Source of the DNA: Candidatus Woesearchaeota archaeon
Lineage (GTDB): Archaea > Nanobdellota > Nanobdellia > Pacearchaeales > GW2011-AR1
Assembly: GCA_964530955.1 (NCBI GenBank)
Contig: CAZHCL010000001.1
Location: 49,381 to 113,380 of the forward strand
Reading direction: 5' to 3'
DNA length: 64,000 nt
The notes under the pieces: model-generated
Databases searched by the model: none
Seen by the model: only the letters and a program-made list of their open reading frames with translations
What the model was told of the DNA's origin: nothing
Translations under genes and position numbers: made by a program
Shown here: positions 14,454 to 29,533 of the stretch, piece by piece
Numbering within the stretch: the stretch's first letter is position 1
How the letters are laid out: every line of letters starts with the position of its first letter

Positions 14454-14603
14454 GTCCCCTTAGCTCAGACCTTCCGAGACGCTAATTAACGTTAGGATGG
14501 GAGCAATCGGTAGAGCATCTGACTGTTAGAGATTAACAGCAGCTTTCCGTTGGAAGGCCCTATAGAAATCAGAGGGTCGCTGGTTCGAGTCCAGCAGGGG
14601 ACG
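14454..14603 (+). tRNA. tRNA-Asn(GUU) with two introns (14469-14506 at position 15/16; 14529-14567 at position 37/38)
   Basis: Removing both introns gives a perfect 73-nt cloverleaf GTCCCCT TA GCTC AGTCGGTA GAGC A TCTGA CTGTTAA TCAGA GGGTC GCTGG TTCGAGT CCAGC AGGGGAC G; both junctions fit bulge-helix-bulge geometry. Confidence 0.93.
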
Positions 14604-27535: not shown

Positions 27536-27720
27536 TGTCTTCAGTCCTTTGATGATATAAGGCATTTATAAACTTTATGCATGTTTTATAGACGATAAAT
27601 ATATATCCTGAATATACAGAAGGTTTATATAATAAATGGGTTTTATTTTTTGACTTCTGCTTTTGTTATTGATTACTACCCGCTATACCTTATTCATTGT
27701 TGAAAAATTATATATTAATT

Positions 27721-27779
27721 GAGCGGGCCCGCCGCGCCGCGTGCGACGAGCCCTTCATCTCAGCCTAACCGAGATGAGC
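27721..27779 (-). ncRNA. Candidate structured small RNA (two hairpins, 71% GC)
   Basis: 42/59 G+C in AT-rich context; stems CATCTCGG/CTGAGATG and GGGCTCGTCG/CGGCGGGCCC close with G-U pairs only on the minus strand; TTTAAATA 25 nt upstream. Confidence 0.6.
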
Positions 27780-27803
27780 ATGATAAAAAAACAGAGCATA
27801 AGA

Positions 27804-27811
27804 TATTTAAA
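27804..27811. promoter_or_regulatory. TATA element between the candidate sRNA (-) and the antiporter gene (+)
   Basis: TATTTAAA / TTTAAATA about 22-25 nt from both putative starts. Confidence 0.5.
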
Positions 27812-27832
27812 AACCCCTTGGTTCAACCTTTA

Positions 27833-29533
27833 ATGGCCGAACAGATATTAGTTTCTTTAAGTCTCATTATTGCAATAGCTGCATTGGTCACTATTTTGGT
27901 CAGGATAATTAAACAGCCACCCATAATAGCATATCTCATTTCGGGAGTAATAGTTGGGCCTTTGTTCCTTAACTTGATAGGACCAACAACGGACACAACT
28001 GGATTATTGCAATTGTTCTCTCACCTTGGTGTTGCACTATTGCTATTCATAGTCGGATTGAGTCTTGATTTCAGGTTACTAAAAGAGGTAGGTCCAGTTT
28101 CTGCTCTAGCTGGAATTGCTCAGATAGTGATTACTGGTGTTCTTGGATATTTACTTGCCGTATGGATGGGACTTAGTAACATAGGCGCAATATATCTTGC
28201 ACTCGCACTTGCATTTTCTTCGACAGTTGTTGTTGTAAAAATATTATCTGATAAAAGAGAGATTGATACTTTACATGGAAGGATTTCACTTGGAATATTA
28301 ATCATCCAGGATTTTGTTGCTGCACTGGCATTAATGATTATTCCATTCTTTAATAAAACTGGAAATATAGCGAGCATGGCCGGTAATTTTGGATTGGTTG
28401 TTCTTTTGATAGTTTTGACTTTTGTGCTTTCTACTTTTGTTTTCAATAGGTTGCTTAGCTATCTTGCAAGTAACCAAGAGGTTTTGTTCCTTTTTGGAAT
28501 TGCTTGGGCTCTACTGCTGGCAACAGTATTTGATTATCTTGGATTTTCTTCAGAGATAGGCGCATTGGTTGCTGGAATGTCTCTTGCTTCAAGCAAATAC
28601 ACTCTAGAATTGGAGGGTAAGATAAAACCTCTCCGTGATTTCTTCATAGTTCTATTTTTTATATTTTTTGGAAGCCAGCTGGCTGGAAGCATTGGATGGG
28701 ATATGATAAGGGATGCAATTATACTTTCTTTATTTGTAATAATTGGAAAACCAGTCATAGTAATGTTTATCCTGAAAATATTTGGATACAAGAAGAGAAC
28801 AAACTTCCTTGCTGGAACAAGCCTTGCGCAGATAAGTGAATTTTCTTTGATACTCGTCTTACTTGGATTTACTCTTGGACATCTTAACCAAAGTATAATG
28901 AGCCTTGCAGTTCTTGTTGCGATATTTACAATAGGAATAAGCAGCTATATGCTTTATTATTCTCATAGTGTATTTAATGGAATATCTGGATTACTTGGAA
29001 TATTTGAAAATAAAAAGCATAGAGCAGAAGAAAGTAAAAAAGAAGAAGAGTATGATGTTTTCTTGTTCGGATATCACAGAATAGGATATAAAATACTTCA
29101 AACATTGAAAAAGAGCAAATTAAAATTTGTTGTTGTTGACTATAATCCTAAAGTTATAACTACTTTAAGTAAAGAAGGAATTGAATGCATATATGGAGAT
29201 GCTGCAAATAAAGATTTCCTTAGAGAAATTCCAGTTCATAGGGCAAAAATGATTATTTCGACTATACCTGATGAATCTTCAAATAGAGCTATAAGAGAAA
29301 TGCTAAAAGAAAGAAACTCAAAAGCAACATTCCTTGCTACTGCTGAACAGCCAAGAGCTGCTCTTGATCTTTATGAAGCAGGAGTAGACTATGTTATAAT
29401 ACCTCATCATCTAGGAGGAAGTTTTGTATCTACAATAATAAGGGCATTTGGAACTAATAAGGATAAATACAGAAAGGCTGGAAAAGACCATTATCATGAG
29501 TTGAAAAAGGCTAAAAACAACTCCAGCTTCTAG
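27833..29533 (+). CDS. CPA2 cation:proton antiporter with C-terminal RCK/TrkA-N domain (KefB/KefC-like)
   Basis: Many TM helices, LGVALLLFIVGL, AFSSTVVVVKIL, FFIFFG, QISEFSLI; then GYHRIG, VVVDYNP, IYGDA. Confidence 0.9.
   Translation: MAEQILVSLSLIIAIAALVTILVRIIKQPPIIAYLISGVIVGPLFLNLIGPTTDTTGLLQLFSHLGVALLLFIVGLSLDFRLLKEVGPVSALAGIAQIVITGVLGYLLAVWMGLSNIGAIYLALALAFSSTVVVVKILSDKREIDTLHGRISLGILIIQDFVAALALMIIPFFNKTGNIASMAGNFGLVVLLIVLTFVLSTFVFNRLLSYLASNQEVLFLFGIAWALLLATVFDYLGFSSEIGALVAGMSLASSKYTLELEGKIKPLRDFFIVLFFIFFGSQLAGSIGWDMIRDAIILSLFVIIGKPVIVMFILKIFGYKKRTNFLAGTSLAQISEFSLILVLLGFTLGHLNQSIMSLAVLVAIFTIGISSYMLYYSHSVFNGISGLLGIFENKKHRAEESKKEEEYDVFLFGYHRIGYKILQTLKKSKLKFVVVDYNPKVITTLSKEGIECIYGDAANKDFLREIPVHRAKMIISTIPDESSNRAIREMLKERNSKATFLATAEQPRAALDLYEAGVDYVIIPHHLGGSFVSTIIRAFGTNKDKYRKAGKDHYHELKKAKNNSSF

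Follow-up and report, generated by a model that had tools for sequence, protein, structure and literature searches.

The window, by which the whole 64,000-nt stretch of DNA analysed here is meant, belongs to a 0.76 Mb assembly of 26 contigs that is 83% complete and carries archaeal translation genes. At positions 27721-27779 it contains a 59-nt segment with a GC content of 71.2%, compared with 34.9% for the window and 34.6% for the genome. The neighbouring gene is transcribed divergently and encodes a CPA2-type cation/H+ antiporter, in which the Pfam domains Na_H_Exchanger (7.6e-59) and TrkA_N (2.3e-24) were detected. The features of the locus are listed in Table 1.

Table 1. Features of the small-RNA locus (positions are those of the window)
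Feature	Position	Strand	Basis
TTTAAATA, TATA box for the small RNA, 24 nt 5' of 27779	27804..27811	-	Sequence; pile-up in homologs
AUCAU block, predicted transcription start region and 5' tail	27780..27784	-	Conservation; 20-24 nt 3' of the TATA box
HP1, 7-10 bp stem, variable loop with conserved GGCU (27762-27765) on its 3' side	27755..27777	-	Fold; covariation
HP2, 11-bp GC-rich stem, 7-nt loop with CGCGGCG (27735-27741)	27725..27753	-	Fold; covariation
3' tail, GCUC in the window, consensus A-C-U	27721..27724	-	Conservation
T5 run, likely archaeal terminator of the small-RNA transcript	27703..27707	-	Sequence; T-runs in homologs
CPA2-type cation/H+ antiporter with TrkA-N domain, divergent neighbour (context only)	27836..29533	+	Pfam

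The minus strand of the segment folds into two directly adjacent hairpins, HP1 and HP2, with a free energy of -35.8 kcal/mol and a z-score of -4.04, and none of 200 shuffled sequences folded as well. Two U-G pairs of HP2 turn into A-C mismatches on the plus strand, whose fold is for this reason less stable (-25.7 kcal/mol). The original prediction had described a GC-rich RNA of two hairpins on the minus strand, where mismatches of the plus strand become G-U pairs; both statements hold, and homologs in 45 other loci keep the two helices. The number of stems in that prediction was also right, whereas their lengths (8 and 10 bp) have to be revised to 10 bp for HP1 and 11 bp for HP2. In the window copy, 7-9 of the 10 base pairs of HP1 are conserved, and the final G of the CGCGGCG motif is the base that closes the stem of HP2.

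Covariation, invariant loops and phylogenetic distribution

Compensatory changes among homologs, which had been proposed as a check on the element, are abundant. In an alignment of 45 homologs (A3), changes on both sides were found in 17 of the 18 pairs, including all seven modelled pairs of HP1 and ten of the eleven pairs of HP2. Standard pairs occupy 98.3% of 784 stem cells (99.7% in HP1 and 97.5% in HP2), counts that were made on a model-fitted alignment, which favours pairing somewhat, and on kin that are not independent, such that they overstate the number of independent events. None of 500 shuffles reached the observed values, and pairing fell to 36-44% when the partner column was shifted by one to three positions. 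An alignment of only ten sequences, made with MAFFT alone, gave the same picture, with compensatory changes already present in eight pairs. Among the paired columns of 44 distinct homologs (again kin, with the same overstatement), 63 cells are G-U and two are A-C; as the former are mismatches on the opposite strand, the functional molecule is the minus-strand RNA, which agrees with the RNA-level selection predicted for this strand.

The stem sequences of both hairpins drift freely while their pairing is retained, and HP2 varies from 10 to 12 bp in stem length and from 7 to 8 nt in its loop. Conserved letters in A3 occur only in the apical loops and the tails, and no conserved internal loop or junction was found in this alignment. 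Loop 2 reads GCGGCG in all 45 homologs and is preceded by C in 43 of them, and the four letters of the GGCU in loop 1 are kept in 39, 41, 44 and 44 of the 45, respectively. Conservation extends to the AUCAU block (U in 45, C in 34, A in 43 and U in 42 of 45) and to the tail after HP2 (A in 30, C in 37 and U in 37 of 45). In one member of the genus (L009:1459-1512), an extra 9-bp hairpin is inserted in loop 1 with the stem-adjacent GGCU left intact, which shows that insertions can be tolerated in the 5' half of this loop. No supported pseudoknot was found in the small RNA, and both kissing of loop 1 with loop 2 and pseudoknots between tail and loop were rejected, given that at most 3 bp could form and that these showed no covariation.

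The distribution of the element was examined with BLAST, which found copies 78-85% identical in ten genomes of the same genus, and with two covariance models. The first model (R1), run on 151 genomes of the order, detected one copy each in 37 of them. The second (R2), built from 38 sequences, matched 47 of the 150 genomes sampled from this family, always with one copy (48 of 151 if the own genome, also with a single copy, is included), and these matches span 35 of 112 genera. A sample of 150 genomes of the phylum from outside the order yielded one convincing match (L184), in which both hairpins and the loop-2 motif are kept. Where public records with true matches carry a name, they are metagenome-assembled genomes (MAGs) of a Candidatus Pacearchaeota, Woesearchaeota or Nanoarchaeota archaeon, which marks the source of the window as a Pacearchaeota-type DPANN archaeon.

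When the same 150 family genomes were ordered by the identity of their EF-1alpha to that of the own genome, the RNA was present in 23 of 24 genomes at 79% or more, 12 of 22 at 75-78%, 6 of 31 at 72-74% and 1 of 56 at 71% or less. Presence thus tracks relatedness, which points to a lineage-specific invention that was kept almost without exception after its acquisition; judged from this pattern, the family is inherited vertically within one clade of a Pacearchaeota-type DPANN family. Absence in a MAG means "not found" and is no proof of loss; even a more sensitive search did not find the small RNA in three near-complete genomes of the family that fall outside this clade (G041, G042 and G094), and it is therefore not essential to the family as a whole. 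A scan of genome contigs with a loose pattern gave, among the 80 matches listed, nine archaeal records that pass the model and about 70 matches in GC-rich bacteria that all fail it, the latter being a useful negative control for the covariance model. All of the 80 pattern matches listed from viral contigs fail the model as well.

Two hairpins would also be expected of an element that acts at the level of DNA, i.e., an IS200/IS605-type or REP-like relic, a protein-binding palindrome or a bidirectional terminator. Short TCAT-like words indeed lie on both sides of the element in about ten homologs, and hairpins of single-stranded DNA tolerate G-T as well. Such an origin is nevertheless highly improbable, since the element is present as a single copy in every genome and its position is syntenic across genera, its arms covary with no recognition sequence kept, no transposase is nearby, and the pattern matches listed from viral contigs all fail the model; in the window, moreover, it sits between divergent genes, so that nothing is terminated there. 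Copy number and synteny also led to the rejection of the TCAT-like direct repeats as target-site duplications and, with no transposase among the neighbours, of mobile-element hairpins or REP-like repeats.

On these comparative grounds, the element is a gene, present once per genome, whose product is a stable and structured non-coding RNA with a predicted length of about 60-80 nt, belonging to a family that has no entry in Rfam 15. It encodes no peptide. DPANN archaea have the smallest archaeal genomes, and a single-copy RNA with an almost perfectly conserved structure and unchanging loops in nearly every member of a multi-genus clade implies strong selection in genomes that discard dispensables. 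To our knowledge, almost nothing is known about the non-coding RNAs of DPANN archaea, and no carrier of this RNA has been cultured. The small RNA provides a defined molecule for metatranscriptome searches and a bait for its partner, as well as a compact clade marker, and the two models and the alignment (R1, R2 and A3) could seed a new Rfam family. The novelty lies at the level of the RNA family, and the mechanism may prove to be ordinary protein binding or antisense action.

Transcription unit and gene neighbourhood

TATA-like 8-mers pile up at positions -29 to -26 of 44 homolog loci (4, 14, 10 and 4 occurrences, respectively, vs a background of 0-3), and the best such 8-mer in the window begins 26 nt before model position 1. 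A peak 26-29 nt upstream places the predicted transcription start inside the AUCAU block. The promoter assigned in the original prediction is thereby supported, TTTAAATA lying 24 nt from 27779, and so is a role as terminator of the U-run that it had pointed out (T5 at 27703-27707): on the sense strand, 17 of 45 loci have a run of at least four T no more than 10 nt past HP2, vs 2 of 45 on the antisense strand, and 27 of the 45 loci have one within 30 nt. A TATA box about 25 nt upstream, an oligo-T run and covariation on one strand, which are generic attributes of an independent archaeal RNA gene, are thus found together. Within positions 27804-27836 of the window, an AT-rich, nearly palindromic box, TTTTTAAATAT, lies about 24 nt from the conserved block of the RNA and about 25 nt from the ATG of the antiporter gene. 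The position of one box near both genes suggests a shared back-to-back promoter and a leaderless antiporter mRNA, and TTTAAATA probably also serves the leaderless antiporter gene on the plus strand.

A different transcription unit was observed in one genome from another family of the order (L060), where no nucleotide separates the RNA from the discriminator base of an upstream tRNA-Tyr, which contains an intron. The only TATA box is borne by the tRNA gene, the AUCAU block is absent, and a T5 run follows the RNA. In such a tRNA-sRNA dicistron, with the sole promoter held by the tRNA, the 5' end of the RNA would be made by tRNase Z. Because the AUCAU block is absent from this tRNA-fused copy, it is probably an initiator or leader and not part of the functional core. 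At L060:1568-1696 on the minus strand, the tRNA-Tyr(GUA), whose anticodon loop is interrupted by an intron of about 60 nt, is joined head-to-tail to the small RNA; this tRNA was missed by ARAGORN and found by Rfam. In three further loci (L041, L047 and L121), 30-100 nt separate the small RNA from tRNA genes on its strand, and in L109 the 3' end of a tRNA is about 45 nt upstream of the small RNA. Taken together, the flanking signals are consistent with an RNA that starts at a TATA promoter of its own or that, in one genome at least, forms the 3' cistron behind tRNA-Tyr; its 3' end would be formed at the T-run, or the RNA would be cut out of a longer transcript.

Dicistronic genes of a tRNA and a snoRNA or sRNA are known from plants and have been reported for Nanoarchaeum equitans. 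The present RNA resembles such tRNA-linked small RNAs in that it abuts a promoter-bearing tRNA-Tyr in L060 and has tRNAs close by in four more loci, but it differs from tRNA-snoRNA genes in lacking C/D or H/ACA boxes and in that most copies have their own TATA box.

The proximity of tRNA genes, found in five loci and abutting in L060, would also suit a tRNA-like minihelix, in which HP2 and an unpaired purine mimic an acceptor/T-arm that is processed by RNase P and tRNase Z, possibly with addition of CCA, HP1 being the leader. The dimensions of HP2 (10-12 bp with a 7-8-nt loop) and the unpaired A or G that follows it in 38 of 45 homologs are compatible with this idea. We consider it very unlikely, as the loop is no T-loop, the stem varies in length and keeps no identity pair at any position, conservation and covariation are as strong in HP1 as in HP2, contrary to expectation for a discarded leader, and in the window the tRNA model gives no score at E<=10 and ARAGORN is silent. 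Because its stem covaries freely and varies in length, its loop is no T-loop and the tRNA model gives it no score, the likeness to a tRNA acceptor helix that had been attributed to HP2 could not be upheld.

The neighbourhood of the gene was compared across 47 loci. The antiporter gene is present in 21 of these and is the nearest upstream, divergent gene in 14; the fetched flanks include the gene for ribosomal protein S10 in 21 loci, and in 14 no other gene is closer downstream of the RNA. The ancestral gene order seems to have been SerRS and the antiporter (divergent), followed by the small RNA and then S10, if these flanks are taken as a guide. Beyond the synteny of antiporter, S10 and SerRS, no recurrent functional neighbour was found across the 47 loci, and the other neighbours are functionally unrelated (NUDIX, PAP2/VTT, SNase, Ogg and SPOUT methyltransferase). 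In L041 and L109, HP2 is followed after 14 nt, without an intervening T-run, by the start of a gene for an SFM1-like SPOUT methyltransferase (PF04252, 1.9e-52), which is thus probably co-transcribed with the small RNA; this adjacency may be a coincidence in compact genomes.

Since an ORF follows so closely in these two loci, the RNA may double as a 5' leader in some genomes, and a more general form of this idea is that it acts in cis as a leader or attenuator of the downstream gene, ancestrally S10, e.g., as a ribosomal protein site controlling read-through at the T-run. Besides the two methyltransferase loci, the frequency of S10 in the flanks and the orientation of the downstream gene, which is on the same strand in 32 of 46 loci, are in its favour. 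However, a dedicated cis function appears distinctly unlikely. Reading of L004, L006 and L011 by eye revealed a TATA-like box between the T-run of the RNA and the start of a leaderless S10 gene; in the window, L008, L009 and L012, what follows downstream is a distant or a convergent gene; the genome analysed here has its S10 gene on another contig; and in G041 and G094 the antiporter gene is directly beside S10 with no small-RNA element between them. Given that the flanks vary and that S10 has its own TATA-like box in the three loci read by eye, the RNA is better regarded as an independent gene and not as a dedicated leader.

Comparison with known RNA families

The original prediction had matched the element to no known family and had named an Rfam scan as the means of checking this. 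In the window, Rfam 15 placed no family on the element either at the gathering score or at E<=10, and in 20 homolog loci there was no match to the element at E<=1, while the flanking tRNAs were found. No local match to the element was obtained with the SSU, LSU, tRNA, SRP and RNase P models, and literature searches retrieved no description of the small RNA. At the same thresholds (E<=10 in the window and E<=1 in the homologs), the ribozymes and riboswitches of Rfam 15, such as hammerhead, twister, mini-ykkC and nhaA-I, were rejected; conserved nucleotides would be expected there in junctions or internal loops, and the small RNA has them only in its apical loops and tails.

Several classes of RNA were also rejected on structural grounds. 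Archaeal C/D box sRNAs have RUGAUGA and CUGA in a terminal K-turn, internal D'/C' boxes and single-stranded guides of 10-12 nt; in the small RNA, a CUGA-GAUGA string is part of the 3' strand of HP1, where it is Watson-Crick paired, and it covaries, its GGUG, AGUG and GAGG variants being accompanied by matching 5' strands; neither terminal C/D boxes nor an Rfam C/D match was found on the element, and, unlike C/D and tRNA-linked sRNAs, it has no guide-like single strands. In an archaeal H/ACA sRNA, a hairpin encloses a pseudouridylation pocket, its upper stem forms a K-turn or K-loop and ACA follows the stem on the 3' side, whereas both stems are continuous here and the consensus of the 3' tail is ACU, not ANA. 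A tRNA or split-tRNA half (RF00005) was dismissed because ARAGORN was silent at the site and the tRNA model found none at E<=10 in the window and at E<=1 in the 20 loci. A tRNA anticodon arm does not fit, as loop 2 has C at the place of U33 and loop lengths vary; mimicry of the anticodon arm of tRNA-Arg(GCG) was rejected too, GCGG being common to the loops and positions 33 and 38 being different. HP1 was also considered as an SD/anti-SD mimic of the 16S 3' end (GAUCACCUCCU); in most copies only six of seven letters agree, the letters of the inner stem covary freely, and the match was judged to be a coincidence. Other GC-rich islands of the genome were considered as partner RNAs, and none bears the complement.

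The view that the element is a detached piece of a known RNA, i.e., a split-tRNA half, SRP helix 6 in trans or an rRNA fragment, draws on the fact that split tRNAs are known from DPANN archaea and on the lack of helix 6 in the SRP RNA of this family. It is scarcely credible, and already largely refuted. A split-tRNA half is expected to carry a free GC-rich tail complementary to the other half, and a tRNA has a T-loop of the GTTCRANYC type; the stems of the small RNA are self-contained, with no free GC-rich tail, and no D- or T-arm signatures are present. SRP helix 6 has a GNAR tetraloop, which the loop of HP2 is not. Moreover, the SRP RNA measures 261-264 nt in carriers and non-carriers of the small RNA alike, which leaves no room for helix 6; as helix 6 is missing regardless of the small RNA, its supply in trans fails as an explanation. 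The absence of a local match to the SSU, LSU, tRNA, SRP and RNase P models points in the same direction. The idea that the element stands in for a missing SRP RNA, RNase P RNA or 5S rRNA was rejected as well, because all three are encoded elsewhere in the genome: an SRP RNA (RF01857) with an intact Alu domain at C13:21132-21390, an RNase P RNA (114 bits) at C19:5412-5730 and a 5S rRNA (61.8 bits) at C8:5308-5422.

Some known systems are similar to the small RNA in part. The Hgc RNAs of Methanocaldococcus and Pyrococcus are GC-rich non-coding RNAs that were found by composition screens and are present in Rfam. Like them, the small RNA is a sharp GC island (71% vs 35%) in an AT-rich archaeal genome and has its own promoter, but it matches no Hgc family in Rfam, and the DPANN lineage and the fold differ. 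The guanidine-II riboswitch (mini-ykkC) has ACGR tetraloops in both hairpins and resides in bacterial 5' UTRs; it shares with the small RNA two short tandem hairpins of which only the loops are conserved, and loop 2 of the small RNA usually starts with ACG. On the other hand, the loops of the small RNA are 7-10 nt long and mutually dissimilar, its gene is free-standing, and there is no Rfam match. Two neighbouring hairpins with conserved loops are also characteristic of the SRP Alu domain (helices 3 and 4), and variants of loop 1 (UAGGC) resemble the consensus of the helix 3 loop, whereas no UGUNR turn separates the hairpins and loop 2 differs from the helix 4 loop. Finally, antisense or decoy RNAs that display their loops, such as the kissing-loop pair RNAI/RNAII, similarly use stable stems to present short invariant loops as contacts, although the small RNA, unlike RNAI/RNAII, is encoded by a single-copy gene on an archaeal chromosome and has no overlapping antisense gene.

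Candidate partners and other RNAs of the genome

Stems that drift and yet always pair, combined with invariant apical loops, suggest an RNA that acts in trans by presenting its loops. The stems would be rigid, nuclease-resistant scaffolds, and GGCU (loop 1) and CGCGGCG (loop 2) would form a sequence-specific docking surface for a trans partner. This partner may most plausibly be a protein, with which the RNA would form a small RNP or for which it would act as a decoy, and less plausibly a complementary RNA. A protein is the default choice because no convincing RNA target was found in the genome: the complement of the loop 2 7-mer has eight sites in the own genome, approximately the number expected from composition, two of which fall on the element's own antisense strand, and no such site is located within the known RNAs of this genome. 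If the partner is a protein, a new small RNP would be defined. As a whole, the explanation by an independent small-RNA gene whose rigid stems present loop motifs to a trans partner is one that we hold with slightly more belief than doubt.

A specific RNA partner can be proposed in the ribosome. The 530 loop of 16S rRNA (helix 18) is universally conserved and part of the decoding centre. Loop 2 (CGCGGCG) could pair with CGCCGCG (positions 523-529 in E. coli 16S numbering) and GCUG of loop 1 with the adjacent CAGC (519-522), giving 11 contiguous nucleotides; the small RNA would then be an rRNA-binding RNA that serves as a small-subunit assembly chaperone holding helix 18 open or as a reversible ribosome silencer. 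In the 16S and 23S rRNAs of four relatives that carry the RNA, the 530 loop is the only 7-mer complement of loop 2, and the four nucleotides directly 5' of it are complementary to loop 1. Both the loops and this target are invariant, and no other full site exists in the own genome. Such an interaction would be a new kind of contact between an RNA and the ribosome.

Nevertheless, permutations of the motifs with matched composition yielded an adjacent bipartite rRNA site in 5% of trials (p about 0.05) and a 6-mer rRNA site in 70%, and the idea arose after several other hypotheses. In addition, a second GCCGCG site with an adjacent CAGC is present in the 23S rRNA of two relatives, and CAGCC is also common in the tRNA D-loops of the own genome. 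Four homologs have A for G in loop 1, for which no change in the target is possible; the loops do not follow the order that a continuous antisense sequence would have; and genomes without the small RNA should have the same universally conserved loop. The 530 loop is therefore an unlikely partner, and a new class of rRNA-directed RNA, neither C/D nor H/ACA, that would clamp 11 nt of this loop has to be regarded as an improbable outcome.

Several observations were made on other RNAs of this genome and its relatives. The SRP RNA of the own genome (L181:1501-1759) and those of eight relatives (L324-L331) are only about 260 nt long, with 40 helix 6 positions of the model deleted in the alignment of the former. 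The nine RNAs score 67-83 bits, below the Rfam gathering cut-off of 96.5, and what they represent looks like a family-wide archaeal SRP RNA without helix 6, as far as these sequences indicate. The 23S rRNA genes of five relatives (G059, G079, G093, G122 and G124; L200-L204) measure between 3.1 and 4.0 kb, a spread suggestive of insertions or introns, and the 16S rRNA of G093 is found in three pieces over two contigs. The own assembly seems to have a 23S rRNA gene (GC-rich islands at C19:633-3970) and no 16S rRNA gene. With regard to tRNAs, ARAGORN detected no tRNA-Asn in the 83%-complete own genome and called a tRNA-Gly(tcc) with a 67-nt intron at position 24 in the window (14454-14603; C1:63834-63983). 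Shorter GC-rich islands without an assignment include C21:3337-3396, C10:12351-12395 and C10:31103-31149, among others. Two GC-rich elements of about 150 nt, approximately 80% identical to each other, are located outside long ORFs at C1:1742-1872 and C18:7700-7832 (L332 and L333); they had no Rfam match at E<=0.1, and in both the minus strand gives by far the better fold (-58 and -54 kcal/mol), which makes this element another candidate structured RNA.
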